Origin: Myxococcales bacterium
GTDB taxonomy: Bacteria; Myxococcota; Myxococcia; Myxococcales; UBA5297
DNA: 64,000 nucleotides
NCBI GenBank assembly: GCA_049841135.1
Contig: JASGHK010000008.1
Span: 83,272 to 147,271 of the forward strand
Direction of reading: 5' to 3'
The notes under the pieces are model-generated. The model was not told the DNA's origin. It did not search any database and saw only the letters and a list, made by a program, of their open reading frames with translations. Both the position numbers and the translations under genes were made by a program. This document shows, one piece after another, positions 4,639 to 64,000 of this stretch; positions within the stretch are counted from its first letter, which is position 1; every line of letters begins with the position of its first letter.

Positions 4639-6138
4639 ACGCGCTCGCCCTGACCGTCCTGCTGTCGCTGGGCGCCGCACCGGCCCGGCCCGCCGCCCCG
4701 CCCCCACCGCCACTCCCGCCCCCGCCCCCGACCTCGCCGGCGGCGGCGAGCCCCGCGGCGCCGGCGGAGGCCCCTTCCCCGGCCGAGCTGCGCATCGACC
4801 GCGAAGTGAGCGCGATCAAGGAGCTCTCGCTCGAGTCCGGCCAGAACCGCCTGCTCGTCGTCTCCGAGGACATCGCCCGCGTCGCGGTGGCCGACCCGAA
4901 CGTCGCCGACCTGAAGGTGGTCACCCCCACGCAGCTCTTGCTGACGGCGCGCGAGCCGGGCAACACCGACCTGACCCTCTGGAACCGCGCCAACCAGCCG
5001 CTGGTCGTCGCCCTGCGCGTGGCCCGCAACCTCGAGGGCCTGCGCAAGCAGCTCAAGGAAGCTCTTCCCCGGCGAGGACGTGCGGCTCTCGGCGGCCGGC
5101 GACCTCCTGGTGCTCGAAGGACAGGTCAGCGACGTGCGCATCCCGGAGCGGGTCGGCGAGGTCGCCAGGCTCCACAGCAAGCAGGTCGCCAACCTGCTGC
5201 AGGTCACCGGCCAGCAGCAGGTCCAGCTGGAGGTGCGCTTCGCCGAGGTCTCGCGCGCGGCGATGCGCGAGATGGGGGTGCACTTCTTCCACAAGCAGGA
5301 GGGGACGCGCGTCGCGGGCATGACCGGCCCGGGCACCAGCCCCGGCAACTTCCTCAACACCACCTCCAACCCCTCCATCCCCGGGGCCGGCGTGCGCAGC
5401 GGCACCGGCCAGCCGCCGGACGTGCTGGCGCCGATGTTCAGCAACGCCTTCTCGCTCTTCTTCTCGCAGAACTTCTCGGGGTTCCCGTTCAGCGTCACCC
5501 TGAACCTGCTCGCCGAGAACGACCTCGCCAAGATCCTGGCCGAGCCGACGCTGGTCACCCTCACCGGCCAGGAGGCGAAGTTCCTCGCCGGCGGCGAGGT
5601 GCCCATCCCCATCTCCTCGGCGCTGGGCCAGGTCAACGTCACCTGGAAGAAGTTCGGCATCCTGCTCAACTTCACCCCCACCGTCATCGGCCAGGACACC
5701 ATCCACCTCAAGCTCGCCACCGAGGTGAGCGAGCTCGACCCCACGCTCTCGGTGACCGTGGCCGGCAGCACCATCCCCGGCTTCTCCTCGCGGCAGGGCG
5801 AGACCACGGTCCGGCTGGGCGACGGGCAGAGCTTCGCCATCGCCGGCCTGCTCACCGACCGCACCCGCTCGCAGGTGGCCAAGGTGCCGCTGCTGGGAAG
5901 CATCCCGGTGCTGGGGGCGCTGTTCCGCTCGACCTCCTACCGCCGCGAGGAGACCGAGCTGCTGGTGGTGGTCACCGCGCGGCTGGCGCGCCCCATGGCG
6001 CCGCACGAGCTGCCGCCCCTGCCCACCGACGAGGTCCGCCCGCCCAGCGACTGGCAGATCTTCCTGCTCGGCGCCGAGCAGGGCTTGCGGCCGCCATCGC
6101 AGGGCGGTCCGGCCGGCGCGGTCGGGTTCCTGCGCTAG
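4635..6138 (+). CDS. cpaC: CpaC/RcpA secretin, apparently interrupted by a +1 frameshift near 5066-5069
   Basis: The N-terminal half (frame of 4635) reads as signal peptide plus BON-like pilus-formation domain (VADPNVADLKVVTPTQLLLTAREPGNTDLTLW). The C-terminal half (frame of 5080) is the secretin domain (LNLLAENDLAKILAEPTLVTLTGQEAKFLAGGEVPIP...GDGQSFAIAGL...VPLLGSIPVLGALF). Deleting one C from the C4 run at 5066-5069 yields the continuous LKEALPGEDVRLSAAGDLLVLEG. Confidence 0.8.
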
Positions 6139-6166
6139 CGACGGAAGAGGACGAGGAGGAGAGAGC

Positions 6167-7322
6167 ATGCCCGAGGCCCACGACCGCAACGAGACGACGC
6201 TCCTGGTAGGGGTCGGCCCCGATCTGGAGGCCCGCTTCCTTCCCGCGCTGGGCGCGCTCCCCCTCGAGCGGGTTCCGGCCGAACCCCAGGCCGTCGCCGA
6301 GGCCCTGGCCCGCGCTCACCCCGCGGCGGCCCTGGTCGCCCTGCTGCCCGCGGCCGCCGACCCAGCGCTGCAGCTCGTCCGGCAGCTCGCCGGCGGCGGC
6401 GTCCGGGTGGTGGTGGTGGCTCCCGAGCGGAGCGCGGAGCTCATCCTCCGGGCCATGCGCGCCGGCGCGCAGGAGTACCTCGTCCCCGGCGAAGAGAAGG
6501 CGCTGGCGACGGCGCTCAGCGGAGGCGCCGAGCACGGCCCCGGATCGGTCGTCGCGGTCCTCGCGGCCAAGGGTGGGCTGGGCGCCACGTCGGTGGCCGC
6601 GCACCTGGCCGGCGCGCTCGTCCACAGTGGCGCCCGCGCCTGCCTCCTCGAATCTCGATCAGGACTCGGGCGACGTGCTCCCCACCCTGGACCTTCAGGG
6701 GCGCTACGACCTCGGCGAGCTGCGGGCCAACCTGCACCGCCTGGACCGCGAGCTGCTCGACACCTCCCTCGAGCGGCACCGCGCCGGCTTCTTCGTGATC
6801 GGACAGACGGAGACCGCCGACTCCTCCCGCCGCCTGGAAGAACGCGAGGTCCCCGGCCTGCTCGCCTTCCTGCGCCAGCATTTCCGGCACGTGGTGATCG
6901 ATGGCCTGCGCCGGCTCGACGGGCCGGAGCTCGCCGTGCTGGAGGCCGCCGAAGCCGTCGTCCTGCTGGTGACCCAGGAGGTGGTGGCGGTGCGGGACGC
7001 CCGCCGCGCCCGTGAAGCCCTGGAGCGCCTCGGCGTCGGCGAGCCGCGCCTGCGCCTGGTCGTCAACCGCTTCCAGAAGGGCTCGCGCATCGACCTCGGG
7101 CTCCTGTCCGACACCGTGGGCCTGCCCGTGGCGGCCACGCTGGCCAACGACTGGCCCTCTCTGGGAGCCGCGGTGCAGCGCGGCGCCCTGCTCTTCGAGA
7201 CCGCCCCGCGCTCGGCGCTCGCCCACGACCTCTCGGCGCTCGCGGCCTCGCTTCCCGGGGCCAGCGCGCCCGCGCCGTCCCACCCGCGACCGCTCTGGTC
7301 GCGCCTGCTGTCCAGGAGGTAG
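6167..7322 (+). CDS. cpaE: CpaE (receiver-like N-domain plus MinD/ParA-type ATPase), apparent +1 frameshift near 6651
   Basis: The N-terminal frame ends at ...VVAVLAAKGGLGATSVAAHLAGALVHSGARACLL. The next frame continues DLDQDSGDVLPTLDL...VIDGLRRLD...VVLLVTQEVVAVRDARRAREAL...LVVNRF. Removing one A at 6651-6652 restores ...ACLLDLDQDSGDV (the CpaE-type deviant Walker region). Confidence 0.75.
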
Positions 7323-7325
7323 CCG

Positions 7326-8667
7326 ATGGGGTTGATCGACCGAGCGCGGGGCCGCGCCCCGGAAGCCGCCGCGGCAGCCGAGGGACTGGCCGCGAACCAG
7401 CAGCAGTTCCACGACCTGAAGGCCGACCTCCATCGGCGGCTGGTGGATCGCATCGACCTGCGCACCCTCGAGAGCCTCCCGCCGGACCGCGTCCGCGAGG
7501 AGCTGCGAAGCGTGTTGGGCGCCATGGTCCAGGAGAAGCTCGTTGCCACTCAGCCGCGCCGAGCGCGAGCGGATGGTCCAGGAGCTCATCGACGAGCTCA
7601 TCGGCCTGGGGCCTCTCGAGCCGCTGCTGCGCGACCCGACCATCAGCGACCTGCTCGTCAACACCTACGCCACCACCTACGTCGAGCGCCGCGGCAAGCT
7701 CGAGCTGACCCCGGTGCGCTTCCGCGACAACGACCACCTGCTGCAGATCATCAACCGCATCGTCTCGCGGGTGGGACGCCGGGTCGACGAGGCCTCGCCG
7801 ATGGTCGACGCCCGGCTCGCCGACGGCTCGCGCGTCAACGCCATCATCCCCCCGCTCGCCATCGACGGCCCCTGCCTGTCCATCCGCCGCTTCGGCTCCG
7901 CGCCCCTGCGGCTGCTCGAGCTGGTCGAAGGCGGCAGCGCGCCGCGCGAGGCCCTGGCCTTCCTGGGCGCCGCGGTGCGCGCCAAGCTCAACGTCCTCAT
8001 CAGCGGCGGCACCGGCAGCGGCAAGACCACGCTGCTCAACGCCCTCTCGGCGTTCATCCCCGACGGCGAGCGGGTGGTGACCATCGAGGACTCGGCCGAG
8101 CTCAAGCTGCAGCAGAAGCACGTCGTGCGCCTGGAGACCCGCCCGCCCAACATCGAAGGCGTCGGGGAGATCGTCGCCCGCGACCTCGTCCGCAACAGCC
8201 TGCGCATGCGCCCCGACCGGATCATCATCGGCGAGGTCCGCGGCGCCGAGGTGCTGGACATGCTGCAGGCCATGAACACCGGGCACGAGGGCTCGATGAC
8301 CACCGTGCACGCCAACACCCCGCGCGACGCGCTGGCCCGCATGGAGGCGATGGTGGGGATGAGCGGGGTCCCCATGGCCGACGGCGCGGTGCGCCAGACC
8401 ATCGCCCGCGCGCTCAACGTGATGGTGCAGCTCAACCGCTACACCGACGGCAAGCGGCGGCTCTCGAGCATCGCGGAGATCACCGGCACCGAGGGTCCCA
8501 CCATCACCTTGCAGGAGATCATCCGCTTCGAGCAGCAGGGGGTCGACGCCCAGGGCCGCGTCGTCGGGCGCTTCGTGGCCACGGGGGTGCGGCCGCGCTG
8601 CACCGAGCGGATCGAGCGGGCGGGCATCGACGCCGACGAGCTCTTCGCGCGCATCGCGGGGGCCTAG
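7326..8667 (+). CDS. cpaF: CpaF/TadA secretion ATPase, apparent +1 frameshift near 7545-7556
   Basis: N-terminal frame: [47 protein letters not shown]. Downstream frame: [18 protein letters not shown]...[16 protein letters not shown] (Walker A)...[33 protein letters not shown]. This is the VirB11/GspE-like ATPase of Tad systems. Confidence 0.85.
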
Positions 8668-12741: not shown

Positions 12742-14077
12742 CTACGGGCCGAAGGTGGCTTTGAGCCCCTGCTCGATGCCGGCCTCGAACTGCCCGGCGA
12801 GCTCCGGGGCGAACAAGACGCGCTTGGCCTCGCCAGTCCCCTGCTTCACGGCCTCGGCCGTCTCCACGTAGCCCACGTAGCCCTGCGCGAAGGAGACGAG
12901 CGCCAGCCGTTCGCCCGGCGCCAGCATCGGCGCGAGCTTCTTGCGCCACTCGAACGACACCGAGGACGTCGGCTCCCCAGGGAGCATCACCAGCGAGAGC
13001 CCCGGCACGCGCAGCAGCGCGAAGCTCCGCCTTGCGCGGCGCCAGCGCGTGCAGCACGTTCGCCGCCGGCATGCTCAGGAAACCGGGAACGGCGTGCTCG
13101 GCCTCGGCGCGTGGCATCCCGACCTCCACGGCCGCCCAGCGCAGCGATGGGGCCGCCGGTGTCGCGGCCGCCAGCAGGGCCTCCTGCGCCGCCTGGGCCA
13201 CCCGCGCGCCCATCCGGTCCACCGGCTCGCCTTCGCCCTCCTTCGGCGGGTCCGAGCTCTGGTCGCCCATCGCCCCCTGCAGCAGGAGCGCCACCCCGCC
13301 CCCGTCCGCCTCGAGCCTGCGCATCGTCCGCCCGGGCCAGTCGCCGTCGAGCGCCTTCGGGTCGCGGCCGACGACCGTGGCGTGCGAGCCGAAGACCACC
13401 AGCCGCGAGACCGCCTTGCCCTGGGCGTCGTCCACCGCGAGGACGGTGAGCAGGTCGTCGTTGGGCGCGCCATCCCGGTCGCGGTTGTAGAGGATGCCGG
13501 GCAGCGGTGCCTGCGCGACGCGGACCTGGGCCGGCGCGAGCGCCTGGTTCGCCTTGTCCAGCGCCTCCTTCAGCCGCGCGATCAGCGCGTCCTCGCGCTC
13601 CTGCTGCCAGCTGCCGGTGGCGCCGATCTCCGCGACGGGGTTGCGGTCGTAGCCGCCGAAGGACGAATGGGTGTGCGTGGCGGTGACCGCCGCGTCGGCG
13701 AGCCCCAGCTCCTTCGCGCGAGCGCGGACGGCCTGGGCGACGCGCTGGGGGATCTCCAGCACCTCGGCGCTGATCAGCGCGACCGACTTGTCGCCCGCGG
13801 ACAGGACCAGCGCTCGCGCCGAGAGCGGCCCACTGGTCTTGGCGGTCGGCCGCGGCGGCGGATATCCGGCGACCGTGGCCGGAAGCGCCGCGTCCATCTC
13901 CACCTTGGCGGCGCCGGCCCTCCACTGCTCCGCGACCGCGGCCGCCTGCGCGACGACCTTGGGCTCGGGCAGCGGCCTCCTCCCGCGCCAGTCGAGCGAG
14001 AAGAGCACGTAGAGCATGCCCAGCGTGTAGACGACGACGAGCGCGCGGGACGACCGGCGGGGCTTCAGCTCAGGCAC
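12742..14077 (-). CDS. neutral/alkaline ceramidase-like hydrolase, apparent +1 frameshift near 13024
   Basis: GTG start at 14077 with GGAGG 9 nt upstream. N-terminal TM segment, then LGLADAAVTATHTHSSFGGYDRNP (ceramidase-like THTHS motif). The C-terminal 88 aa (VPGLSLVMLPGEPTSSVSFEWRKKL...GLKATFGP) lie in another frame ending at 12742. Confidence 0.5.
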
Positions 14078-14153
14078 CTTCGCTCGCCTCCACACGCCGT
14101 TTCTTAGCGGCGCCGAATCACCGGGCCTATAATCCCGGGCCAAGGATACCCAA

Positions 14154-28851: not shown

Positions 28852-29018
28852 AGCATCGGGTCTCCACCGGACAACCCTGCGAATCCTGGCTCCTTTCCTC
28901 GGCCGCCCCGGCGCTCCTGCCCCCGCCAGGCGATGGTGCCGGCCTGACCCGCGGGAGGTCTGAATGCCCCAGCCCCCTGGCCGCCACTCTTCCTTCAGCG
29001 GGCTTGGACCCTCCGAGG

Positions 29019-34755: not shown

Positions 34756-34768
34756 GGCGGGCTAGACC

Positions 34769-36874: not shown

Positions 36875-36959
36875 CGCTGACCTTCTGCGCAGGCGGGCAA
36901 CCTCTTGCTTGCCCGCCACCCTCGAGCGCTGTTACTTGGGCCTCCTTCCTGGAGGTCCC

Positions 36960-39005: not shown

Positions 39006-39006
39006 A

Positions 39007-39026
39007 AGGAAAGGCGCCTTTCCTTC
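39007..39026 (+). terminator. hairpin immediately after the pepO stop (aaggaaagg-cg-cctttcctt), weak terminator candidate
   Basis: Perfect 9-bp inverted repeat 2 nt after the TGA. No downstream U-run, so only a candidate. Confidence 0.3.
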
Positions 39027-39096
39027 GCCGACGCCTCAGTAAGAATCTCTTTCCTTTCGCTGCCCCCAAGGAAAGACTTCTTTACCGAGGCCACAA

Positions 39097-40261
39097 ATGC
39101 CAAGAGTTTCGGGTCAGTACGACAGGACTAGGGTGGGAGGCGAGGAGGTCGCGGCCTTCATTCCCGCCCCTCTGCCCCCATCGGAGCCTCCGCTCGACAT
39201 GGGGAGACTTGCACCTGACCTTCAGCGAGCCGAGTTGGCCCTCGGACGACTGGAATTGGCCAGCGCGATGGTGCCGTCGGTCTCCTGGTTCCTCTACTCG
39301 TTCGTGCGGAAGGAAGCGGTCGTCTCCTCGCAGATTCGAAGGAACCCAGGCGACGTTGATCGACCTACTCACGTTCGAAGCCGAACCGGCCGCCGATTCC
39401 GCCGACGTCCAGGAGATTTGCAACTACCTCGACGCGGTCCACTTCGCGCGCCAGCAACTCTCGAATCCCCAGGGCCTTCCGCTCTCAGTCCGCCTGCTGA
39501 ACGAAACGCATCGTCGGCTGATGAAGGGCGTTCGGGGCCAAGAGAAGCTCCCTGGCGAGGTTCGTCAGAGTCAGAACTGGATTGGTGGGACGAGGCCGGG
39601 CAATGCCGTCTTCGTTCCTCCCCCACCCCACGCGGTGGCGGGGCTCTTGGGGGAACTCGAGCGCTTCATCCACGGCGCCAGCCCGCTCGCGCCCCTCGCG
39701 AGGGCCGGCCTCGTGCACGTCCAGTTCGAGACCATTCACCCGTACCTCGACGGCAACGGAAGGCTCGGTCGCCTTCTCATCGCGCTCCTGCTCGAGCATT
39801 GGAAGCTCCTCACCCAGCCGCTGCTGTACCTGAGTTCCTTCTTCAAGCAGCACCGCGGCGAGTACTACCGCCGCCTCGGCGCGGTCCGAAGCGACGGTGA
39901 CTTCGAGGGCTGGCTTGCGTTCTTCTTTGAGGGCGTGACGTCCGTGGCGAACGAGGCCGTCAGCACGACGCGCGACCTCTTTGCGATGGTCGCCACCGAC
40001 CGAGAGAAGGTGCTGGCCACCAAGTCCTCCTCATTGATGGCCGCGCGCCTCTTCGAACTCCTCCCCGAGCACCCGATCGTCACCATCTCCGGCGTCGGCA
40101 CCTTGCTGAAGACGACGAAGCCCACCGCCACTAAAGCCGTGACAGCGCTCGTCGACGCAGGCGTCCTCGTCGAACGGCCAGGCCAGGGCCGAGCTCGCGC
40201 GTTCGCCTACGGCGCGTACCTCGAGCGACTGGCGGCCGGCACGGAACTCGAAGACCGCTGA
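39097..40261 (+). CDS. Fic/DOC-family protein with Fic_N domain, apparent +1 frameshift near 39337
   Basis: N-terminal frame: MPRVSGQYDRTRVGGEEVAAFIPAPLPP...FVRKEAVVSSQI. The next frame continues EGTQATLIDLLTFEA... (together the conserved SSxIEGT) and the Fic motif HPYLDGNGRLGRLL. Removing the C in attCgaagg restores SSQIEGTQ. Visibly lower GC than its neighbours. Confidence 0.8.
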
Positions 40262-41954: not shown

Positions 41955-42603
41955 ATGCGTTGCCGCCACCTCGTCCTTCTGACCGCTGTCCTCTCCTTCC
42001 CCGCCGTCTGCTTCGCGGAGCCCGACGCGCCCGCCGTCGCCGAGACCGCCGACGCTGGCTCCACCCTGCGCGGGCTCGAGCTCGGCATCGGGCTGGGCAC
42101 GAGCCAGGCCTACGGCGAGGTCGGCACCAACCTCGACGCACGCAGCGACTGGGGCGGAGCGCTCGAGCTGGAGGCTCGCCTTGCGCCTGGGCGCGGGCTG
42201 GAAGGCCGGCGTGTACGGTTCGGTCGGGCTCTATCAATCGAGCTCTGCCGAGGACCCGGGATACGGCGGTGCCGCCGGCCTCCTCTTCGAGCACCGGTTC
42301 TCGCCCGAGGCCAACGTCTCGCCGTCCCTCGGCGTCGGACTCGGCTGGCGCGGGCACTACGTCACTCAGCAGCACCTGCGGCAGTCGCTGTTGGGGCTCG
42401 ATCTGCTGCGGCTGCAGGTGGGCCTGGACGCGAAGGTCGCGCCGGGAATCCGCCTCGCGCCGACGCTCGCCGCGACCCTGACCGGGCTCTTCTGGCAGGA
42501 CCCTGGAAGTGGCACCGGGTACTCGGACATCCAGCATCCCGGGCTGACCGTGTTCCTCTTCGCCGGCGTCCGCGGTCAGTTCGATCTGCTCGACCGCTCG
42601 TGA
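41955..42603 (+). CDS. small outer-membrane protein (OmpW/OmpA-like beta-barrel), apparent +1 frameshift near 42175-42181
   Basis: Signal peptide MRCRHLVLLTAVLSFPAVCFA, then alternating amphipathic strands (LELGIGLGTSQAYGEVG...GALELEARL // RLGAGWKAGVYGSVGLYQSS...GLGWRGHYV...). Confidence 0.5.
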
Positions 42604-43892: not shown

Positions 43893-44550
43893 ATGGCGAG
43901 CAAGCAGGGACGAGGAGAACCGGTCGAGAAGGCGAGCGCGGAGGAGCCGCGCCTCCGTGATGCCGCGCGCACCCGGCAGCGGCTGATCGACGCCGCCCTG
44001 CAGCGATTCGGCAGCCAGGGCTACGCCGCTACGACCGTGCGCGATATCGCGCAAGACGCCGGCGTCAACGTCGCGCTCATCAACCGATACTTCGAGTCGA
44101 AGGAGGGCCTGCTGGCGGCCTGCTTCGAGTCCACCGCCGAGGTCCTGATGAAGTCGACCGAAGGCGTGACCGAGCCTCTCGCAGATCCCGGAGATCATCG
44201 GCGGACGGGTGAGCGATGCGCCGGACGAAGGACTGTCGCGCGCCCTGTACCTGCTGCTCCACACCTCGGGCGATCCGCGCGCGGAGCAGCTGCGCCTGGG
44301 ACTGCTGCGCCGCTTCAGCGAGAGCCTGGCGAGGCTGGCCGGGTGGACCGCCAAGCATCCCCATGCGGACGAGCTGCTGCTGCGCGCCCAGCTCGTCATC
44401 GCGATCGGTCTGGGCATCGCGACGTTGAGGACGTCCAAGCTCGAGCCAATCGCCTCCACGGGCACCGAGGTGCTCAGCGGACGGCTCGGCGAGCTGGTCC
44501 AGAGCGTGTTCGGCGGGCCGCTTTCGAGGCGGGCTGGGCGAAGGACCTAA
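43893..44550 (+). CDS. TetR/AcrR-family transcriptional regulator, apparent +1 frameshift near 44186
   Basis: RBS cgaggagacg. HTH RTRQRLIDAALQRFGSQGYAATTVRDIAQDAGVNVALINRYFESKEGL. The C-terminal ligand-binding half (...LSRALYLLLHTSGDPRAEQLRLGLLRRF...) lies in the next frame. Confidence 0.75.
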
Positions 44551-53836: not shown

Positions 53837-56800
53837 ATGGCGGCCGTCTCGAGAACCGCGGGCCACGCCGCCCGTTTGAAGGACCGATTGCTCGACCCGC
53901 AGCCCAACGCTCCGTCGAAGCTCCCGCCGGGCCTGCCGACGTCCGCGCCTGGCGTCTCCGCGGCCGAGGAGGCCCAGGCCATCGCCGCAGTCCGCGACCT
54001 GCTGGATCGCGCGCGGAAGCGCCAACGCACCCTGTTGCGGCTGACCGCCGGCCTGCTGGTGGTTACAGGCCTGCTTCTGCTCGCCCCCGCGCTGTTCGGA
54101 CTCGCCGCTTCTGGCTTTGCCGCGGCCCGTCCCCTGGCGCTGGTCGCGCTCGTCGCGGCGGCGTTGGTGTACGGCTGGCAGGGCGTCTGGCGCGTGCGCC
54201 GCGAAGTGGGCGATCCCTCCGCGACTGCGCGCCTGCTCGCGACCCGGCTGGACTCTCCAGAGCTGCGCCGGGGTCTATTGCCCGCCTTCGAGCTCTCGCG
54301 TGAGTTGGCGCAGCCCCACGTCGACTTCTCCCGCGCGCTCGCCCGCGCGCACATCGGCCAGGTCGCCCAGCACGCCCGGAGGGCCAGCCTCGAGAGCGCT
54401 TTGCCCGACCGGCCCGTCCGGCTGGCGGGCCGCGTCTTCTTCTTCGCGGCGCTCCTCTTCCTGGTGGCGATCGCGCTGTTCCGCGGGCCGATGTCGCGCG
54501 GTGCCCGGCTCGTCGCCTTCGGCCAGGAAGCGCCGGCGACCAAGGCCGCAACGTCCGCCGAGCCGGTGACCGGGGACGTGGAGCTGACGTACGTCTATCC
54601 GGCCCACACCCGCCTCCCCAGCCGCACCCTGCCGAACACCAACGGCGAGATCTCGGCGCCCAAGGGCACGCAGGTGCGGCTCAAGACCCGCGCCGACCGC
54701 GAGGTCGAGAAGGCCTTCGCCCTGGTCGGCAACACGGCCCTACCGCTCGAGGTCCAGCACGGTCGCGATCTCTCCGGGACGCTCGTCGTCGAGTCCGCTG
54801 GGAGCTACCGCTTCCGCCTCGTCGGCGCGCGCGGAAAGGTGCTCGCCGAGGGCCCGCCCATCCCCATCGCCATCGAGGAGGACCTGCGGCCCAAGGCCAC
54901 CATCGTCGCGCCCATGGCTGACATCGAGGTCGACCCGAAGTCCCGCGTGGAGCTCCGCTACGACGCGGAGGACGACTTCGGCGTCTCGGAGCTCGCGCTG
55001 CTCTTCAAGCTCCCGGGCGCCAGCAAGGCCGAGCGCGTCATCCTCCAGCGCTCGAAGGACGCTCCCCGGCGCGCCAGCGGCAAGTACGACTGGGACCTCG
55101 TGGCGCCCTCTCTCTCGCCGGGCGACACCATCGCGTACTACCTCGAGGCCACCGACAACGACGAGGTCTCGGGAAAGAAGACCGGCGTCTCCCGCACGCA
55201 ATACCTCAAGATCTTCAGCGAGGCCGAGCACCACCGGAAGCTGGTCCAGAAGATCGAGGCGAGCTGGGAGAAGCTGGTCACGCTGCTCGCCGACCGGCTG
55301 GAGAGCGCCGAGCGCAAGCCCGACGGGCGCACGCCGGAGAAGATCCTCGGCGGAGCGACGCTCGACTCGCGGGCCCTGGCCTTGGCCGCGGAGCTGAGCG
55401 ACCTCTCGGTCTCCCTGCGAAAAGAGAAGTCACCCGACCAGCTCTGGCGAGCGTTGGCGCTGGTCAGCGCCGGCTTGAAGGAGAAGGCCACCGCGACCTT
55501 CGACGCGCGCACCGGCGCCGCCAACTGGCTGCGCCGCGGGGCCGCCGTGGACTCCGACCCCGTCCGCAGGGTCTCTCGCGCCCTGGAAGCGGAGATCGCC
55601 GAGGAGGAGAAGGACGTCCTCTACCTCGAGGCGCTCGTCGACCAGCAGCGCATCGCCGACCTCGCCGCGCTGAGCAAGGAGCTCGTCTCCAAGCGCCGCG
55701 AGCTGGCCGACCTGCTCGAGAAGTACCGCGCCGCCCCGGACGAGGCTGCCCGCGACCGGCTCATCAAGGAGATCGCCCGGCTCAAGGAGCGCATGGGCGA
55801 GCTGATGAAGCGCATGGCGGAGCTTCTCCAAGTCCATCAACGACGAGCACTTCAACGCCGAGGCGCTCCAGGAGATGGGCGAGTCGCAGCAGATGATGGA
55901 CGTCTTCGACAAGCTCCAGGAGCTGCTCCACCAGGGCAAGGTCGAGGACGCGATGAAGGAGATGGAGAAGCTGGGCCAGATGCTCGACAAGCTCGAGCAG
56001 AACCTGAACAAGGCCAGCAAGGAGAGCCAGGGCGGGCAGTACGACCCCTTGGCCAAGGACGTCGCGCAGTTCGCCAAGGACCTCGACACGCTCCAGGAGG
56101 ATCAACAGCAGCTGCTCGAAGACACGCAGAAGGTCCGGGAGCACTACAAGCAGCTCCTGCAGGACCGGCTGGCCCAGAAGGGCGCCGACTTCGTCGAGAA
56201 GCTGCGCAAGAAGGCCGACGAGGCGCGCAAGAAGCTCGCGGAGATCAAGAACCCGCGGGCCTTCTGGCGCGAGGACGAGCTCAAGCACGCCAAGGAGCAG
56301 ACCGAAGACCTCGACAAGGCGCTCGCGGTGAAGGACTTCGACCAGGCCGCGGAGTCCGCCGCCAAGGCGCTGATGTCCGCCGAGCAGGCCTCCGACGACT
56401 TCGAGCGCGCAGCCCAGGACGCTCGCCGCTACCCGCAGGCCTTCCAGGAGGAGGCGTCGCTGGCGCAGAAGAACGCCCGCAGCGCCAAGAGCGCCGTCCA
56501 GCCGCTCCAGGACATCAAGCGCGAGCTCGACAGCCTCCAGCCGCCGCCCGCCGCGGCGATGAGCGAGCAGGACCGCCAGGCGATGAAGGACATGGCCCAG
56601 CGCCAGGGCCAGCTGCAGCAGAAGGCTGGCCAACTGCGCCAGAAGATGGAAGACCTGAACCAGCAGGCGCCCCTCTTCCCGCAGGAGGCGCAGGACATGC
56701 TGCAGCAGGCGGGCGGGCGCATGCAGCGCGCTCAGACCAAGATGCAGGGGCGCGATCCGACCGGCTCGGTCGCGGAGGAGCGCGCCGCGCTCGATCAGCT

Positions 56801-57082
56801 CGGCGGCAGCTCGAGAAGGGCCTGCAGAAGCAGCAGGGCGGGCAAAGCCAGGGCGGCGGACAGCCGCTGCCGTGGCCGTGGAAGGGGCCGGGCCAGGAGC
56901 CCAACTTCGGCAACGACGACGGCGAGGGACGGCAGAACGACGAGAAGGTCGAGATCCCCAACGCCGACCAGTACACGGTCCCGGAGGAGTACCGGAAGGA
57001 CATCCTCGACGCGATGAAGCAAGGCGCGCCCGAGAAGTACAAGGACCAGGTCAAGCGCTACTACGAGGAGATCGTGAAGTGA
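53837..57082 (+). CDS. large membrane protein of unknown function, about 1070 aa, read through two frameshifts (about 55826 +1; about 56805 -1)
   Basis: N-terminal TM helices, then a long extracytoplasmic region, then Gln/Glu-rich coiled coil (MGESQQMMDVFDKLQELLHQGKVEDAMKEMEKLGQ...), then the conserved-looking C-terminus ...QYTVPEEYRKDILDAMKQGAPEKYKDQVKRYYEEIVK. Confidence 0.45.
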   Translation: MAAVSRTAGHAARLKDRLLDPQPNAPSKLPPGLPTSAPGVSAAEEAQAIAAVRDLLDRARKRQRTLLRLTAGLLVVTGLLLLAPALFGLAASGFAAARPLALVALVAAALVYGWQGVWRVRREVGDPSATARLLATRLDSPELRRGLLPAFELSRELAQPHVDFSRALARAHIGQVAQHARRASLESALPDRPVRLAGRVFFFAALLFLVAIALFRGPMSRGARLVAFGQEAPATKAATSAEPVTGDVELTYVYPAHTRLPSRTLPNTNGEISAPKGTQVRLKTRADREVEKAFALVGNTALPLEVQHGRDLSGTLVVESAGSYRFRLVGARGKVLAEGPPIPIAIEEDLRPKATIVAPMADIEVDPKSRVELRYDAEDDFGVSELALLFKLPGASKAERVILQRSKDAPRRASGKYDWDLVAPSLSPGDTIAYYLEATDNDEVSGKKTGVSRTQYLKIFSEAEHHRKLVQKIEASWEKLVTLLADRLESAERKPDGRTPEKILGGATLDSRALALAAELSDLSVSLRKEKSPDQLWRALALVSAGLKEKATATFDARTGAANWLRRGAAVDSDPVRRVSRALEAEIAEEEKDVLYLEALVDQQRIADLAALSKELVSKRRELADLLEKYRAAPDEAARDRLIKEIARLKERMGELMKRMAELLQVHQRRALQRRGAPGDGRVAADDGRLRQAPGAAPPGQGRGRDEGDGEAGPDARQARAEPEQGQQGEPGRAVRPLGQGRRAVRQGPRHAPGGSTAAARRHAEGPGALQAAPAGPAGPEGRRLRREAAQEGRRGAQEARGDQEPAGLLARGRAQARQGADRRPRQGARGEGLRPGRGVRRQGADVRRAGLRRLRARSPGRSPLPAGLPGGGVAGAEERPQRQERRPAAPGHQARARQPPAAARRGDERAGPPGDEGHGPAPGPAAAEGWPTAPEDGRPEPAGAPLPAGGAGHAAAGGRAHAARSDQDAGARSDRLGRGGARRARSARRQLEKGLQKQQGGQSQGGGQPLPWPWKGPGQEPNFGNDDGEGRQNDEKVEIPNADQYTVPEEYRKDILDAMKQGAPEKYKDQVKRYYEEIVK

Positions 57083-58936
57083 GGACCTCCGCGCTCATCG
57101 CCTCGGCAACCTTCCTTGCGCTGCTCGCCCCGTCCGTCGCCGCCGCCGATCTCTCGCTCAAGGCCGGCTACGCCGAGCTCGAGGCCTGGGATACCGCCGG
57201 AGCGCGCAAGCTGGCCGACGAGCTGATGTCGAAGGCCCCGGACGACCGGGAAGCCCTCGCCTACGCCGCGCACGTTCGCTACGAGCAGGGCGACTACTCC
57301 GGCGCTCTCCAGCTCATCGAGAAGAGCGGCATCGACGACGAGTTCGCCCAGCTGGTGCGGGCGACGGTCAAGGAGCTCAAGGACCACCGCTCCCGCGAGA
57401 GCGAGCACTTCGTCATCTACTACCGCGAGGGCAAGGACGCGGTGCTCCCGCCCTACGCGCTCGACGCGCTCGAGCGGCAGCGCACGGCCCTCGCGACCAG
57501 CCTGGGCTACATGCCCCCAGGCAAGGTCCGCGTGGAGGTGCTGGACGACATCCGGTCGCTCTCGCGGCTCTCCACGCTGACCCTCGAGGCCATCAAGACC
57601 AGCGGGACCATCGCCATCTGCAAGTTCGACAAGCTCATGATCACCAGCCCCAAGGCGCTGGTGCGCGGCTACGACTGGCTGGACACGCTCTCGCACGAGT
57701 ACACGCACCTGGTGGTCTCCAAGATGAGCCGCAACACGGTGCCCATCTGGATCCACGAGGGCCTGGCGAAGTTCTTGGAGTCCTCCTGGCGCGGCGCGCC
57801 CGGTCTGGCGCTCTCGCCGGCCTCCGCCAGCCTGCTCGCCGACGCGCTCAAGAAGAGCAAGCTCATCCCCTTCGAGCGGATGCACCCGTCGATGGCGCTG
57901 CTGCCGTCGCAGGAGGACGCGGCGCTGGCCTTCGCCGAGGTCTTCACCGCCATCGAGTTCCTCTACGGCAAGGGTGGCAACGTGCTGCTCGGCAAGATCA
58001 TCGACAACCTCAAGGCAGGCGAGCGCTACGACGTCGCAGTCGGCAAGGCCACCGGCGGCACCTTCGCCAAGTTTCAGAGCGACTGGATGGCCTACCTCGC
58101 CAAGCGCGAGTTCCCTCGCGAGGTGATTCCGCTCTCCTCCGAGAAGCTCAAGTTCAAGGACGACGCCGACAAGGAAGAGAAGGCCAAGAAGGACAAGGGC
58201 GCCAAGGGCGAAGAGGACCTGCGCTTCGGCGACTTCCTGGAGATCGAGGACGTCGAGGGCCGCAAGCTCGCGCACCTGGGCGAGCTCTTGCGCCAGCGCG
58301 GACGCACCGCTGCCGCCATCGAGGAGTTCGGCAAGGCCTATACCCGGGTCGGCGCCCGCTCTCCTGCCCTCTCCAACCGTTATGCCCAGGCGCTCATCAA
58401 GAGCGGCGAGTTGCCCAGGGCCGAGGAGATCCTGCTCTCCAGCCTCAAGCCCTATCCCGGCTACCCGCGGACCTTCCAGAACCTGGCCGAGATCTACATG
58501 AGCACCAAGCGGTTCGCCGACGCCGAGCGCTCCTTCTTGGAGGTCGTCAGCGTCGACCCGTTCGAATCCGCTCCCGCACGCGGGCCTCTTGCGCATCTAC
58601 AGCGACCGCAAGGACGAGGCCCGCGCCACCCGCGAGAAGCAGGCGCTGCAGATCCTGATGGGCAAGAAGTCCGACGTCCCGACGACCGCGACCGTCCGCG
58701 TCAGCTGCCACCCGCTCGCGCGCATCTTCGTCGACGGCGTCGACACCGGGAAGACGACTCCGGCGGCGCTGGAGCTCGCGCCAGGTTCGCACCTCATCAA
58801 GCTGGTGAACGACGAGCGCGGCTTCACCCGCGAAGAGCCGGTGGAGGTCGGTCCGGGCGACGAGAAGGAGCTCGACATCCAGGTCGACGGCGACGCCGCC
58901 CCGGTCTCCGCTCCGCCCGACACGGCCAAGAAGTAG
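57079..58936 (+). CDS. secreted TPR / zincin (peptidase-MA-like) / PEGA-domain protein, apparent +1 frameshift near 58575
   Basis: GTGA overlap with the upstream gene. Signal peptide ALIASATFLALLAPSVAAA. LSHEYTHLVV...WIHEGLAKF zincin motif. TPR units. After the shift: HAGLLRIYSDRKDEARATREKQALQILMGKKSD, then PEGA (ATVRVSCHPLARIFVDGVDTGKTTPAALELAPGSHLIKLV). Confidence 0.6.
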
Positions 58937-59098
58937 CCCGGCCCGTCTCGAGACGTTCCCCTCCAGGCCAGTTGTCCCGCGGCGCGACGCAGCCCTGCGC
59001 GGTCTGCCTGCCTCTCCCCGGTGAAGTCCCCGTGGCATGTGCGCTGCAATCGCACCTGACCTCGCACGGGCGTGGACGGTGGGCTCAAGGGGGCGACG

Positions 59099-59745
59099 AT
59101 GCTGGCGACGGTGAAGTCGGGCGCGTTGATGGGCGTGGATGCGGTGGTGGTGGACGTCGAAGTGGACATGGCCTTCGGAATGCCGTTCTTCGCCATCGTC
59201 GGGCTTCCCGACAACTCGGTGAAGGAGAGCAAGGTCCGGGTCATCTCGGCCATCAAGAACTGCAGCTACGAGCTGCCGTCGAAGAAGGTCACGGTCAACC
59301 TGGCCCCGGCGGACATCCGCAAGGACGGCACGGCGTTCGACCTGCCCATCGCGCTCGGTGTCCTCGCCGCAGCCCAGATCGTCGAGCCCGAGGCGCTGCA
59401 GTCGCACCTCTTCGCAGGGGAGCTGGCGCTCGACGGGAGCATCAAGCCCATCCGCGGCGCGCTCCCGTTGGCGGTCGCTGCGCGCGACGCCGGGCTCAAG
59501 GGCATCTACGTGCCCAAGGAGAACGCGCGCGAGGCGTCGGTCGTCGAGGGCATCGACGTCATCCCGGTGACCACCTTCCGTGAGCTCGTCGAAGCCATCG
59601 ACTCCGAGGAGCTGATCACGCCGTACCCGCGCGAGCTCGCCACCAACGCCAGCCACGCCAGCGACTCGGTCGACTTCACCGACGTCCGCGGCCAGGAGGG
59701 CGCCAAGCGCGCGATGGTGCTCGCGGCTGCAGGGGGCCACAACGC
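59099..59745 (+). pseudogene. comM: comM/yifB (Mg-chelatase-like ATPase) 5' fragment, truncated at about 59743 by an inserted element
   Basis: MLATVKSGALMGVDAVVVDVEVD...VGLPDNSVKESKVRVISAIKNCSYELPSKKVTVNLAPADIRKDGTAFDLPIALGVLAA...FTDVRGQEGAKRAMVLAAAGGHN aligns with YifB/ComM up to just before the Walker A. Reading then continues as AFLLGPFALPRLPARR... (not ComM) in lower-GC DNA. Confidence 0.8.
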
Positions 59746-61259
59746 TTTTCTACTTGGCCCATTTGCCCTGCCAAGGTTGCCGGCTCGACGGGCAATCGGC
59801 CGGCGAGGTCGATCCGGTCCCGGTACAGCCGCAGTCCGTAGGGAGCGCGCAAGGGCACCATGATGCCCAGCAACTCCTGCATCCGTTCCGGGGAGGCGCG
59901 ACGGATGGCCCGAGCTAGCGTGCTGGCAGCAGTGCCGAGAGCTGCCCCACCGCACTGAACAGGGGCGTCCGCAAGAGCGACCTTCGCGCGCAGCCGCCTA
60001 GAGTCTGCCGCGGTGCGTGTGTTCTTGATCTGGCCCAGGCGCTCCCGTGCCACCGCCTCCGACACCAGCCCTTCGTCCAGAAGCCGCACAAGCCGAGCCT
60101 CCTGGCTATCCAGGCGCTCCAACTCGGCTTCGGCTTCGGCCAGGTCAAGGTTCGGCTTCTCCTGCTCTGTTCGCTTGCGGCCCGCTTGAACCGCCGCGCC
60201 CAGGACATCGGGATGGGTCAGGAGGTCAACGAGAGCGGCCCGCATCGCAGCGTCGGCGTCAGGAACCCGAACGGTTCGCCGGTCGGGGCAAGGCGGTGCT
60301 GTCAGCCGCCGCGCCGGGGTGGGACAGCCGTAGCGGTAGGACGCACCCTTGCCATCCGACAGAACGTGAACCCGGCAGCCGCATGCGCCGCAGGTCAGCA
60401 GTCCACGCATCGCCGCGTCCCGGGATGGCTTGGGCCCGCAAGACGACTTGGCGTCTGCCAAGAGCATCTTGAGTCGCTCCCAAGTTACTTCGTCCACGAT
60501 CGGCGGAATCTCGACGGTATGCCCACAGACCGTGTAGCGCCCGATGATGGCGGGCTGAGTCAGCAACCGGAGAACAGTGCTCTTCCCCCACTTCCCGGCT
60601 CGGGCGGCGGGCACGCCATCGCGGTTAAGGTGAGCCGCTATCGTGCGCGACGACTCCCCAGACAACGCCTCTGCGACGATGCGTCGGTAGACGTCGACCT
60701 GCTCGGGCACGACGATCCAGGTCTTGGAGAAGTGGTCATAGCGGCGCCCGTAAGGAGGCGAGCCCTGCGAGAGGCGCCCCTCCTCGGCTGCCCGCAAGCG
60801 CCCCGCGGCCGTCCTCAGCAGAATCTTCCGCCGCTCCTCTGAACTCTCGTTCGCCTTGAGGAGATAGGTCAGCCGGCCCAGGACGTTGCTTGGTTCAAAG
60901 ACTGCGCCCTGCGCGTCAACAATGACGGCGCGAGCCTCCTCGGCCAAGCAGAGGACTTCGGTCTGCTCTCGAAGGGTCGCGGCGCGCGTGATCCGGTCGA
61001 TAGCGAAGCAGCGGATCTCGTCGTAGGACTTCGAAGCCGTGAGGCGTCGCAGTTCGCGCACGCTGTCGCGCTCATCCAGAGGCAGGGCCCCCGACACACC
61101 CAGTTCCTCGATGCGTGCCACAACCACGCACGGGCGGGACCTTCGCAGGCGGTCCAAAGCATGGCGTTGCGTCTCGGGCGTGTCGTTTTTGACCTGCTGG
61201 TCACTGGAGACGCGAATCAACTCTACTGCGCGCGGGAGAGCGGGGTCGGTGCCGGGCAT
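59676..61259 (-). CDS. large serine recombinase (resolvase-type catalytic domain, recombinase domain and zinc-ribbon)
   Basis: ATG 61259 with GGAGG RBS. AVELIRVSSDQQVKNDTPETQRHAL (catalytic Ser in RVSS). Recombinase domain (IAAHLNRDGVPAARAGKWGKSTVLRLL). Cys cluster (CGACGCRVHV...YRYGCP). Coiled-coil C-terminus. The C-terminal codons read through the comM junction. Confidence 0.85.
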   Translation of the reverse strand: MPGTDPALPRAVELIRVSSDQQVKNDTPETQRHALDRLRRSRPCVVVARIEELGVSGALPLDERDSVRELRRLTASKSYDEIRCFAIDRITRAATLREQTEVLCLAEEARAVIVDAQGAVFEPSNVLGRLTYLLKANESSEERRKILLRTAAGRLRAAEEGRLSQGSPPYGRRYDHFSKTWIVVPEQVDVYRRIVAEALSGESSRTIAAHLNRDGVPAARAGKWGKSTVLRLLTQPAIIGRYTVCGHTVEIPPIVDEVTWERLKMLLADAKSSCGPKPSRDAAMRGLLTCGACGCRVHVLSDGKGASYRYGCPTPARRLTAPPCPDRRTVRVPDADAAMRAALVDLLTHPDVLGAAVQAGRKRTEQEKPNLDLAEAEAELERLDSQEARLVRLLDEGLVSEAVARERLGQIKNTRTAADSRRLRAKVALADAPVQCGGAALGTAASTLARAIRRASPERMQELLGIMVPLRAPYGLRLYRDRIDLAGRLPVEPATLAGQMGQVEKRCGPLQPRAPSRAWRPPGRGRR

Positions 61260-61399
61260 CTGTTTGCCTCCTGGGCTTCTGCAAGCCGCAGATCCGTTAG
61301 CACAGCTTCGAACCAGTCGAGCAAGTCGGAGACGGCAAGCGCCTGCTCGGACTCGTCGGCAAGACACGAGAGGCGGACACTCGCGGGGCTCCTACTCAT
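61223..61399 (-). CDS. small hypothetical protein (58 aa) overlapping the recombinase start
   Basis: MSRSPASVRLSCLADESEQALAVSDLLDWFEAVLTDLRLAEAQEA... No family recognised. Confidence 0.3.
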   Translation of the reverse strand: MSRSPASVRLSCLADESEQALAVSDLLDWFEAVLTDLRLAEAQEANRCPAPTPLSRAQ

Positions 61400-61677
61400 C
61401 GCCGCCCCCCCCTCCCGCCGCTTGCTGGCTTCTGGGCCAGACTTGCCGCCTGTCGAGTCGAGACAACGAGTCGATAGCCGCCGGGTGCCCCACAGTCCGC
61501 GAAGCGGTGGCCGATGTCTCGCAGTCCATCGGTGTCCCGGTTCCGAAGCGGCTTCCCGGCCTCGGAGAACGGCCAACCGTGGACGTGCGTTCCGGCGCAC
61601 CACGGGCAGAGCGCCTCAACGTGCCGCGTGGTGGTGACGCTGTAGACCCGGCCGAAGGCGTAGGGGATGGGGCTCAT
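61396..61677 (-). CDS. small hypothetical Cys/His-containing protein (about 93 aa)
   Basis: MSPIPYAFGRVYSVTTTRHVEALCPWCAGTHVHGWPF...HRFADCGAPGGYRLV. Possible zinc-binding. Confidence 0.35.
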   Translation of the reverse strand: MSPIPYAFGRVYSVTTTRHVEALCPWCAGTHVHGWPFSEAGKPLRNRDTDGLRDIGHRFADCGAPGGYRLVVSTRQAASLAQKPASGGRGGRR

Positions 61678-61997
61678 TGCTCGCACCTCCCGGCCGAGTT
61701 GGGCCAGTCGCACTCGTGGTCGCGCAGGGCGCAAACGGCGCACCCCCTGTGCAGCATGATCGTGCGATAGGCGTTCGGCGCCCGGGTCGGCCTGAACCAT
61801 CGCTCGCCCAACTTGCTGGCGAGAGTCCCCAGATCGATCGCGCACCGCTTCCAGTCGGCTGTCTCGAATCCCAGTTCACTCAGTGGGACGAACAAGTCTG
61901 TTCGCGCGTCGTAGAACCGTCCGGCATGCGGGCTGCCGTCCTCGGCAGCGTCTCCGTGGATGTAGAGTCGCTCCGGTCGAAGGGCGGTGGACTTCAT
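61674..61997 (-). CDS. hypothetical protein (107 aa)
   Basis: ATG 61997 with GGGAGG RBS. MKSTALRPERLYIHGDAAEDGSPHAGRFYDARTDLFVPLSELGFETADW... Confidence 0.4.
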   Translation of the reverse strand: MKSTALRPERLYIHGDAAEDGSPHAGRFYDARTDLFVPLSELGFETADWKRCAIDLGTLASKLGERWFRPTRAPNAYRTIMLHRGCAVCALRDHECDWPNSAGRCEQ

Positions 61998-62200
61998 CGG
62001 CGTTCGCCTCCCTTCCCGCTGCACAGCAACTCGAAGCCGGGGCGGAGTGCTTCCAGTTTCTCCGCCGCAGCGTCGAACCGCTGTGCTTCGACTAGATGGG
62101 CTACCTCGACCAACCGAGCAGACACGCTGCCGGCGCGGAGAGCGAGCCGCAGACCGACCGGCAAAGAAGCCGGGGCCGTCGGCGGACTTCGTTGGATACC

Positions 62201-62389
62201 TCATCGCAGCCCCCGCTCGGCCTTGGATAGCGCCAGCAGTTCAGTCATCGCCGAAGCGAGCGCGCATGCCACGTCATCGGCAGTGCCAGTTAGTGCGAGG
62301 TCTGCCGCTGCGTGAATCTTCTTCGCCAACTTCTTGGCTGCTCGGGTGCGGTGGTCGGTTGCGGCGGGGGTAACGGTCTTCGACGTCAT
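62201..62389 (-). CDS. small hypothetical protein (62 aa)
   Basis: ATG 62389 with GGAGATG RBS. MTSKTVTPAATDHRTRAAKKLAKKIHAAADLALTGTADDVACALASAMTELLALSK. Confidence 0.35.
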   Translation of the reverse strand: MTSKTVTPAATDHRTRAAKKLAKKIHAAADLALTGTADDVACALASAMTELLALSKAERGLR

Positions 62390-62448
62390 CGGAGCATCTC
62401 CTTGGTTGGTGCTTCGGGTGCTTCGGGTACGACTTCGGAAACGACAGG

Positions 62449-62733
62449 TCATGCGGCCTTCCTCTCTAAGCGCGCGTCGGTGCCGGTGAGGATGGCCAGC
62501 GCTTCGTCATCGGAGCCGACGACAGCCGCGCGAACAGCGTGGGCCCACAGTTCTTCGCCGGGCCCGAGCTGGGCGAGCGCCGCCAAGAGTTCCGAGGCGA
62601 AGGGCTCGAAGCGCGCCCGAAACGCGTCAGTCCGCGCCGCCTTGGGCCTTACAACGAGTCGCCCTGAGCCGCTCCAGAGGGTGATTCCCGAGGAGTGCGC
62701 AGCGGTTAGCAGGGACAGGAGGGCCGGGCTCAC
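62449..62733 (-). CDS. small hypothetical protein (about 94 aa)
   Basis: GTG 62733 overlapping the upstream stop (GTGA) with GAGGAGG RBS. VSPALLSLLTAAHSSGITLWSGSGRLVVRPKAARTDAFRARFEPFASELL... Confidence 0.35.
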   Translation of the reverse strand: MSPALLSLLTAAHSSGITLWSGSGRLVVRPKAARTDAFRARFEPFASELLAALAQLGPGEELWAHAVRAAVVGSDDEALAILTGTDARLERKAA

Positions 62734-64000
62734 GCGAAGGCCTCCTCTTCGTCGGCCCACAGGCCGGATTGAGGCGGAACAGCAGCAGACGGAGGCTCGG
62801 GAGGAGGGCTGGAGACCGCGGGAGACCGGGAGTCCGCGGGAGTCGTGCCGGCCGTTTCTTCGTGGGAGGTGTTTTTTTCATCTTCTTCAGAAAAACTACT
62901 TTCCCCAGGAACCCGGTTAGAACGTCTCCCGCTGTCTCCCGCACTCCCGCAAGACCCTGAAACCGCCCAACTCCAAGAGCCGTTGCGGCTGTCTTTCTCA
63001 ACCGCGCAGATTCGTTCGCCTTTTCTCCACTTGTCCCGATAGAGGCCGATTCGGCGCCCCAACTTGCGGGCATCCACCTTGCCATCCTTGATGAAGTCGG
63101 CCGCGTCGAGCGCTGCCCAGAAGTCGGCGGCCGCCGGATTGTCTCCCGCGAACTCGGACGCGCGCCCCGCCTCGAGCCGTTGCTTGATCTGACCGGCGGT
63201 CAGCCCCGACCGCCCGGGGTCGAGCGCCTTTAGCCCAGCGATCAACATGTCGTGAAGGTCGGTGGTCCTGTCGGCCTTCCGTAGTCCCTCGCGCGTGTCC
63301 ACCCACGGATTGGCCAACCCGAGCCATCGGCACATCCCGCGAACGATGGCGCTCCACTCCTCAAAGCTCCCGAAGGCGGGAAGGTCCCTGGAGTTGGGGC
63401 GTCCCGCGACGAACCAGGCGCGGGCCACTGTGAGAGCGCAGGCGAGCAAGCGCGGCCGGTTCTCGCGGACCCAGCCGAGCAGGTCTCTGTGCGCAACGTC
63501 AGTGCGTTCCTCGGGGTGCTCCAGGGGCGACGCGAGCCGGATATGGATCGCGCGCCGCACAATGTCGCCGCATAGCGTGGCGTTGTTGAGGGTCGCCCAC
63601 CACGTTGCGCAGTTGGGCAACTTGAGCGCGGCCTCAGCGTCGTTGCGGCCCAGCAAGCGGCTGGCATAGGTGCCCTCGCACGTCAGCAACTTGTCGAGGA
63701 TGGCGCCGCCGAAGTCGGTATCAACGTTGTCGAGGTTGACCACTGCATCCATGGCCGACAGGTGCGCGACGATGCGCTTGTCCATCTCCTCTCGGTTGAG
63801 GGTGAAGGACTCGCAGGGGGCCATGTAGCCCGTGGCGATTCGCGCTGCCGTGTGAACGAGGAGCCCCTTGCCTGCGCCGCGCGTGTTCGCATCCACCATG
63901 TTCAGCGGCACGTTTGCGGAGCCGAGAGCCGGGCTTGACGATCATGGTCATCAGCGCCGCGAACCAAGCCGCTCGATGCGCTTCGGTCTCAAAGGGGAAG
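62730..64000 (-). CDS. phage/plasmid primase-helicase-like protein, C-terminal part (N-terminus beyond window; apparent +1 frameshift near 63905-63930)
   Basis: VNLDNVDTDFGGAILDKLLTCEGTYASRLLGRNDAEAALKLPNCATWWATLNNATLCGDIVRRAIHIRLAS... resembles the C-terminal region of P4/D5-type primase-helicases (from memory). Upstream frame at window end: FPFETEAHRAAWFAALMTMIVKPGS. Confidence 0.35.

Follow-up and report, generated by a model that had tools for sequence, protein, structure and literature searches.

Extra bases at GATC and GAGCTC palindromes split genes in a myxobacterial metagenome-assembled genome: a probable artefact of methylated sites

Assemblies of native DNA sequenced on nanopores can carry localised errors caused by methylation motifs, mostly within coding sequences. 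In the available portions of the reports describing them, these errors cluster at methyltransferase motifs or at most a few bases away (GATC is among those reported), are specific to particular strains and persist at higher coverage (PMC12392509, PMC11610603, PMC11649196; Lohde et al. 2024). Here we describe 15 frame-breaking insertions that resemble such errors in position, and that affect 14 genes in the metagenome-assembled genome (MAG) of a bacterium of the order Myxococcales. The window (the whole stretch of DNA that was analysed) comprises 64,000 nucleotides of contig JASGHK010000008.1 (assembly GCA_049841135.1, positions 83,272 to 147,271 of the forward strand) and includes a Tad/Flp pilus locus. 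Only insertions are detectable here, in which respect the window differs from the described cases, and we infer the long-read origin of this assembly.

Homopolymer indel errors in long-read MAGs offer a second point of comparison, since these likewise leave gene fragments in adjacent frames and truncated annotated proteins in assemblies of high contiguity. As portrayed in the available portions of the literature, however, they are typically deletions in runs of at least 5 nucleotides, whereas the events described below are insertions at palindromes that are not homopolymers (PMC9262707, PMC11649196). The two palindromes concerned, GATC and GAGCTC, are those of Dam-like methylation and of M.Sgr13350I-like 5-methylcytosine (m5C) methylation at the SacI target. 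GAGCTC is a documented m5C motif that occurs in Patulibacter and in vermicompost MAGs, and its methylation is known from high-GC soil bacteria and compost MAGs (PMC11954522). The link to the present organism is drawn from the error pattern. Judged from the sequence, the extra bases are almost certainly errors of the deposited assembly, whatever their cause, rather than part of the organism's DNA, and they probably arose when the consensus of a long-read MAG gained spurious bases at palindromes that were methylated.

Frame breaks in fourteen genes

Junctions were placed in three ways: by the change-point in codon likelihood, which gave intervals of 3-15 nucleotides, by DNA alignment to relatives and by the residues conserved among homologues. 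The coding signal was traced across the window with a plot of G+C content at third and second codon positions in each frame (GC3/GC2). The relatives used were contained in short-read metagenome contigs, designated L081 and L082 (both JGI 3300035523), L083 (JGI 3300037484) and L084 (ENA ERZ28563687), and represent species different from that of the window (about 80% nucleotide identity) rather than the same strain.

All 15 events (Table 1) are insertions, 14 of a single base and one of two bases, and no deletion was found. At each site the coding signal switches to the next frame without a stop or start, and Pfam profile coordinates run on across the jump in adjacent frames, as in the kinase, ubiE and Fic genes; removal of one base per site yields single contiguous domain matches with higher scores. 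When orthologues were compared with the window by tblastn, those of the affected genes mapped as two to three abutting pieces in adjacent frames, and those of the neighbouring genes DapB, FAH, HPPK, TPR, MshEN, TadB and RecA mapped as one piece each. A codon-likelihood census of the whole window, together with a GC3 scan, revealed no further convincing frameshift, only gene boundaries and weak antisense noise. A further relative, L001, was found via its M13 peptidase (86% amino acid identity); it is syntenic with 28992-39133 only, a part of the window in which no frameshift occurs, and served as a control. Searches with two chimeric proteins made of 'junction segments' were dominated by kinase, CpaC and DUF4175 matches; for Fic, GNAT, OMP, TetR and ubiE they turned up no close relative.

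An initial annotation, made from the sequence alone, had proposed that at least 15 genes in the window are interrupted by single-base indels, almost all of them +1, with the protein continuing in the adjacent frame. The continuation is borne out by split Pfam domains, codon-likelihood change-points and orthologue alignments, and the positions given were accurate to within about 20 nucleotides; the breaks are far more numerous than expected by chance. The figure of 15 holds for events but not for genes, the DUF4175 gene being hit twice. Likewise the bias towards insertion is complete, each event moving the side of higher coordinates by +1, but one event is +2: what had been read as a -1 change at 56805 proves to be two extra bases relative to both L083 and L084.

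Table 1. Insertions in the window, with the extra base in square brackets; bases and motifs are on the plus strand unless stated, and intervals are those obtained from codon likelihood
Gene (extent)	Strand	Extra base	Position	Sequence context	Interval
cpaC, secretin (~4635-6138)	+	A	5059..5060	GA[A]GCTC at 5058-5064	5057-5060
cpaE/tadZ (6167-7322)	+	A	6651..6652	GA[A]TC at 6650-6654	
cpaF (7326-8667)	+	A	7536..7537	GA[A]GCTC at 7535-7541	7541-7550
Ceramidase-like (~12742-14092)	-	one base	13022..13023	gene strand GAGCT[T]C; plus strand GAAGCTC at 13021-13027	
PilZ (~15514-16219)	-	one base	15733..15734	gene strand GAT[T]C; plus strand GAATC at 15732-15736	
Ser/Thr kinase (16266 to ~17799)	-	one base	16872..16873	gene strand GAG[G]CTC; plus strand GAGCCTC at 16869-16875	
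Fic (39097-40261)	+	T	39335..39336	GAT[T]C at 39333-39337	39334-39336
GNAT(-cupin) (40942 to ~41785)	-	one base	41361..41362	gene strand GA[A]TC; plus strand GATTC at 41359-41363	41351-41363
Small outer-membrane-type protein, OMP (41955-42603)	+	G	42173..42174	GAG[G]CTC at 42171-42177	42173-42176
TetR family (~43893-44550)	+	C	44175..44176	GAGC[C]TC at 44172-44178	44172-44182
ubiE/menG (49985-50705)	-	one base	50225..50226	gene strand probably GAGCT[G]C	optimum 50225
Large DUF4175 membrane protein (53837-57082), first event	+	T	55824..55825	GAGCT[T]C at 55820-55826	
DUF4175, second event	+	two bases	56804..56807 (ambiguous within this range)	window CTCGGCGGCAGCTCGAG; possibly G[GC]AGCTC	
Zincin (Peptidase_MA_2)-TPR-PEGA (~57076-58936)	+	A	58565..58566	GA[A]TC at 58564-58568	
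Primase/helicase-like, integrated element (62730 to beyond 64000)	-	probably one base, possibly A	63913..63915 (approximate)	two frames abut; A would make AAA	

In cpaC, the T2SS pilus-N domain is one frame away from the Secretin domain, and repair gives AAG GAG CTC TTC, encoding KELF, where 10 of 10 homologues read K[E/D]LFPG; the extra base is 7 nucleotides upstream of the C4 run at 5066-5069 to which it had initially been assigned. In cpaE, GAATCTC in the window aligns with GAC-CTC in L081, and the L081 protein maps to two window pieces, 6197-6652 and 6651-7316, in adjacent frames. In cpaF, GAGAAGCTC in the window aligns with GAGA-GCGC in L081, and the codon-likelihood interval merely touches the GAGCTC-type motif. 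Downstream of the junction, the CpaF fragment matches NCBI protein MGC4122017.1 ('MAG: CpaF family protein [Myxococcales bacterium]') at 100% identity; that protein is encoded on a MAG contig of 1,652,613 bp. As this protein was called at 374 amino acids, compared with 447 in the L081 orthologue and about 445-455 in all other homologues, the public assembly already carries the cpaF frameshift.

The Ceramidase_alk domain of the ceramidase-like gene is divided between frames (profile positions 37-158 and 415-501); GGAGCTTCGCG in the window aligns with CGATC-TCGCG in L082, and the orthologue maps as residues 7-356 and 356-451. The PilZ event, at first listed as no more than possible, is real on the evidence of the L082 alignment (window CGATTCTCAAG, L082 CGA-GCTCAAG) and of the two pieces in adjacent frames, residues 1-167 and 162-230, to which the orthologue maps. 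In the kinase gene, Pkinase positions 1-80 and 79-201 are found in adjacent frames and are united by repair (1-201, 126 bits); GAGGCTC aligns with GA-GCTG in L082, and the sequence VVELC.GGNLR is present in six homologues.

Repair of the Fic gene gives back the residues SSQIEGT and joins two Fic_N matches in adjacent frames (3-42 and 42-80) into one (3-80 of 82, 78.6 bits). In the next affected gene, GNAT and Cupin_2 are in adjacent frames, and metagenome relatives of the GNAT part align over residues 4-175 in one segment across junction residue 141, giving no base-level placement. After repair the acetyltransferase runs stop-free into Cupin_2 to form a 280-amino-acid fusion. Of the metagenome relatives, all at 62% identity or below, some cover the GNAT part (4-175) and others the cupin part (145-277), but none covers the two together; either the fusion is real or a second, undetected error has removed a stop or start. 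For the OMP gene, around 100 homologues of 205-240 amino acids align unbroken across junction residue 73/74, which bears out its initial listing, and a protein in our library, P0258, is a 140-residue fragment corresponding, at 99% identity, to residues 76-215 of the 215-residue product obtained by repair. TetR_N and TetR_C_16 occupy adjacent frames and belong to the same protein after repair. In ubiE, Ubie_methyltran positions 5-162 and 150-233 are in separate frames and become 5-233 of 233 (220 bits); the variant that restores GAGCTC scores 1-5 bits better against eight of nine homologues, and an extra C in a nearby C4 run is less likely.

At the first event in the DUF4175 gene, the window reads GAGCTTCTCC where L083 has GAGC-TCTCG and L084 has GAGC-TGTCC, and the tblastn pieces meet at 55824/55825. 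At the second, CTCGGCGGCAGCTC in the window is two bases longer than both L083 (CTCG--GGCAGCTC) and L084 (CTCGGCG--AGCTA), and reading returns to the original frame; had the original been GGCGAGCTC, this event too would possibly be an expanded GAGCTC. In the zincin gene, which has Peptidase_MA_2/TPR and PEGA in adjacent frames, GATC is intact in L083 and in L084, each of which has TTCG-ATCC. The primase-like event, also listed initially, receives support from two matches of the repaired protein that run unbroken across the junction, one to phrog_29234 (residues 1-343) and one to phrog_19930 (DNA polymerase/primase; residues 1-250).

The initial annotation had proposed a comparison with orthologues in related genomes. 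At eight sites, orthologues in the four independent short-read contigs are intact, in a single frame and free of indels: CpaE (380 amino acids), CpaF (447), the kinase (520), PilZ (232), the ceramidase (452), DUF4175 (1030 and 887) and the zincin (631 and 610). Identity to these orthologues is equal on either side of the junctions (91% and 92% in the kinase, 78% and 78% in DUF4175), GC3 is maintained at 0.9-0.99 in both frames and none of the 15 genes that were compared with orthologues has an in-frame stop. The insertions affect about one gene in four, among them ubiE/menG and three consecutive Tad core genes. That such essential-looking genes are hit had been taken to argue against pseudogenisation, and the unchanged conservation downstream and the lack of in-frame stops bear this out.

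Confinement to GATC and GAGCTC

Thirteen or 14 of the events fall within what would otherwise be GATC (5) or GAGCTC (8-9), in most cases because a base inside the motif is doubled. In 12 of 13 codon-likelihood intervals, one or other palindrome reappears when a single base is deleted; the null expectation is 0.087 per interval (binomial P = 2.4e-12), and a score of 12 was never attained in 200,000 random placements. The remaining interval is that of cpaF, which the L081 alignment places in GA[A]GCTC. GAGCTC accounts for seven intervals and any other of the 64 palindromic hexamers for at most one. The rate of insertion differs between the palindromes, being about 5 in 234 sites (about 2%) for GATC and 8-9 in 63 (about 14%) for GAGCTC. 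The position of the extra base within the motif varies (after A2, G3, C4 or T5), as does the codon phase, and beyond the two palindromes no feature common to the insertion sites is evident.

The view, expressed in the initial annotation, that the indels are often in short homopolymers does not hold. None of the 118 runs of at least 5 nucleotides in the window (99, 13, 5 and 1 runs of 5 to 8 nucleotides, respectively) coincides with a detected frameshift. A classical homopolymer indel error was rejected on this ground, the events making 2-nucleotide runs inside palindromes rather than extending longer pre-existing runs.

The events are unevenly spread. Six lie in 5-17 kb and eight motif-associated events in 39-59.8 kb, while 17-39 kb contains full-length domains only. 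Errors thus seem to have been more frequent in some parts of the window than in others, as could result from differences in read depth or from uneven polishing.

Origin of the extra bases

Short palindromes are typical targets of type II methyltransferases, and GATC is the classical Dam-type motif. We propose that the organism methylates both GATC and GAGCTC and that, wherever these motifs occur, the modified bases would perturb the raw signal or the kinetics of both strands. Basecalling or consensus building might then sometimes add one base (once two), usually by duplicating a base within the motif, and with the same bias acting on both strands of a palindrome, averaging over strands would fail to cancel the insertion. 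On this model an insertion would be left at some 2% of the GATC sites of the window and at some 14% of its GAGCTC sites, and within a gene it would appear as a +1 frameshift. A long-read assembly is suggested by the presence of a 1.65-Mb contig in a metagenome bin. The insertion-only pattern, the involvement of two unrelated palindromes and the variable position and codon phase of the extra base all point away from real mutation or decoding, and we know of no mutational or recoding process that is confined to two palindromes in this way. The initial annotation had preferred an insertion-biased assembly error to a real phenomenon; all of the indirect evidence supports that preference, as an interpretation, although the motif pattern had been missed.

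A number of observations weigh against methylation-linked insertion as the explanation. Most copies of the motifs in the window are intact (229 of GATC, 54 of GAGCTC), and the interval at 17-39 kb is free of events despite containing 85 copies (67 GATC and 18 GAGCTC; P ~0.015 at window-wide rates), so that local coverage or patchy polishing probably also contributes. The placements in ubiE and at 56805 are ambiguous, and the primase-like event stands outside any GATC or GAGCTC context, the only one to do so. No methyltransferase gene was found within the 64-kb window. Published methylation-induced nanopore errors, moreover, are mostly substitutions. In the available portions of the literature on these errors they are described as wrong or ambiguous calls near the modified base, not as insertions, and an insertion-only signature was not found there (PMC12392509, PMC11610603, PMC11649196).

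Some of these points lend themselves to an artefact tied to the palindromes by a cause other than methylation, such as a context-specific bias of the basecaller or polisher at GA..TC palindromes, mis-polishing with reads of a related strain or locally low coverage. Such a cause shares all of the evidence for an artefact; the clustering of events, with none in 17-39 kb, points to coverage or patchy polishing, and the silence on insertions in the portions of the methylation literature just cited counts in its favour. A generic bias at GATC would, however, show in every genome sequenced on the platform and would hardly have escaped notice. The palindromes here are two and unrelated, and m5C methylation of one of them is documented in high-GC soil bacteria (PMC11954522), a picture more like the methylome of a particular organism; we regard a cause other than methylation as unlikely.

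It is far less probable that the insertions are genuine mutations of recent date which have turned these genes into pseudogenes as the genome decays or hypermutates, perhaps following damage and error-prone repair at restriction-modification sites. The bases are indeed present in the deposited sequence, and the motif specificity could mark sites cut or nicked by a cognate endonuclease. Repair of cuts at GATC or SacI-type sites, as far as it is known, would however leave 4-bp duplications or deletions, not +1 changes. Real pseudogenisation would bring deletions and nonsense mutations too, and the sequence beyond the lesion would diverge. What is seen here is 15 insertions against no deletions, no in-frame stop in the genes compared, no raised divergence beyond the junctions and intact GC3 and codon bias, in a quarter of the genes and in ones as central as ubiE/menG and the Tad core; pseudogenes of genome decay were rejected on these grounds.

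Nor is there much to be said for real frameshifts that the cell overcomes to produce full-length proteins, whether by programmed +1 frameshifting of the ribosome or by slippage during transcription, which we consider highly improbable, even though the direction is uniformly +1 and essential-looking genes are affected. In programmed frameshifting of the prfB type the downstream part of the protein lies in the +1 frame, as here, but that system has a conserved shift codon with an in-frame stop, an upstream stimulator and conservation in orthologues, and these signals and this conservation are absent. There is no shared shift site, the extra base being found at four motif positions and in differing codon phases; the upstream frame continues for hundreds of bases to the next stop at the sites scanned, one event is +2 and the orthologues of relatives are unshifted, with nothing conserved. 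Programmed frameshifting was rejected accordingly, as were transcriptional slippage and phase-variable tracts: no tract or slippery run is present at any junction whose sequence was read, and no long homopolymer is involved. A combination of the two ideas, in which bases genuinely present in the DNA arise by site-specific insertion at GATC and GAGCTC (for example by error-prone repair of restriction-modification nicks) and the resulting burst of very recent frameshifts is tolerated or decoded, is barely credible.

The feature is of technical rather than biological interest. It amounts to a quality warning, in that about one gene in four in this window of a public MAG is falsely truncated or split, and public databases hold the truncated products as ordinary proteins (CpaF at 374 rather than about 447 amino acids, P0258 at 140 rather than about 215). 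False truncation of this kind would skew pangenomes, pathway calls and the counting of pseudogenes; a reader of the annotation would, for example, take both menaquinone/ubiquinone methylation and the Tad pilus to be defective. The pattern also supplies a simple rule for detection and repair: wherever the frame breaks, check whether either palindrome has grown by one base. This rule could be extended to the rest of the genome and to other long-read MAGs of similarly high GC. In addition, the pattern indirectly predicts methylation of GATC and GAGCTC in the organism. If insertion errors at methylated motifs prove common, polishers and basecaller models deserve checking.

Setting of the window and other observations

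The source is the MAG of a high-GC soil myxobacterium related to Anaeromyxobacter, the nearest genomes being Myxococcales and Anaeromyxobacteraceae MAGs. G+C content is about 70% across the window and GC3 reaches 0.9-0.99 in coding frames; tRNA and Rfam scans of the window gave no matches. The Tad/Flp pilus locus comprises genes for TadE, CpaB, CpaC, CpaE, CpaF, TadB, TadC, a TPR protein and TadG. Elsewhere in the window are the ceramidase-like, MshEN, PilZ, Ser/Thr kinase, HPPK, FAH and DapB genes, ECF sigma/FecR pairs, the M13 peptidase, Fic, GNAT-cupin, TetR, RecA and ubiE genes, and those for the DUF4175 membrane protein, the zincin-TPR-PEGA protein and ComM.

The comM gene (ChlI/Mg_chelatase family) is broken off at about 59757-59761, within the Walker A region (…AGGHNAFLLGP|FALPRL), such that only residues 1-220 of the 508-residue L083 orthologue are alignable. 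Adjoining the break is the gene for a large serine recombinase (59676-61367, minus strand; Resolvase, Recombinase and Zn_ribbon_recom domains; phrog_95 integrase), the last ~80 nucleotides of which extend into comM sequence. Beyond it come small open reading frames without Pfam or PHROG matches and then the primase/helicase-like gene, all of lower G+C content (0.66). In the region 59060-64000, comM thus seems to have been invaded by a prophage or integrative element, the other end of which is outside the window.

Between recA and ubiE is a region of lower GC3. Here, an open reading frame within 47444-49883 matches the DruA (Druantia) domain (1.6e-27, profile positions 60-221 of 297) and overlaps or abuts an IS4/Tn5-like transposase (Tnp_DNA_bind and DDE_Tnp_1); it may be what is left of a defence gene, or it may belong to the insertion sequence. 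Finally, an 836-amino-acid open reading frame at 30960-33470 on the plus strand is without a Pfam match and has an odd codon-position composition, with GC1 (~0.5) below GC2 (~0.6) and GC3 at ~0.96. Stops interrupt the antisense frame in which the third codon position is the same, and DNA of L001 aligns across the region (31162-36287).

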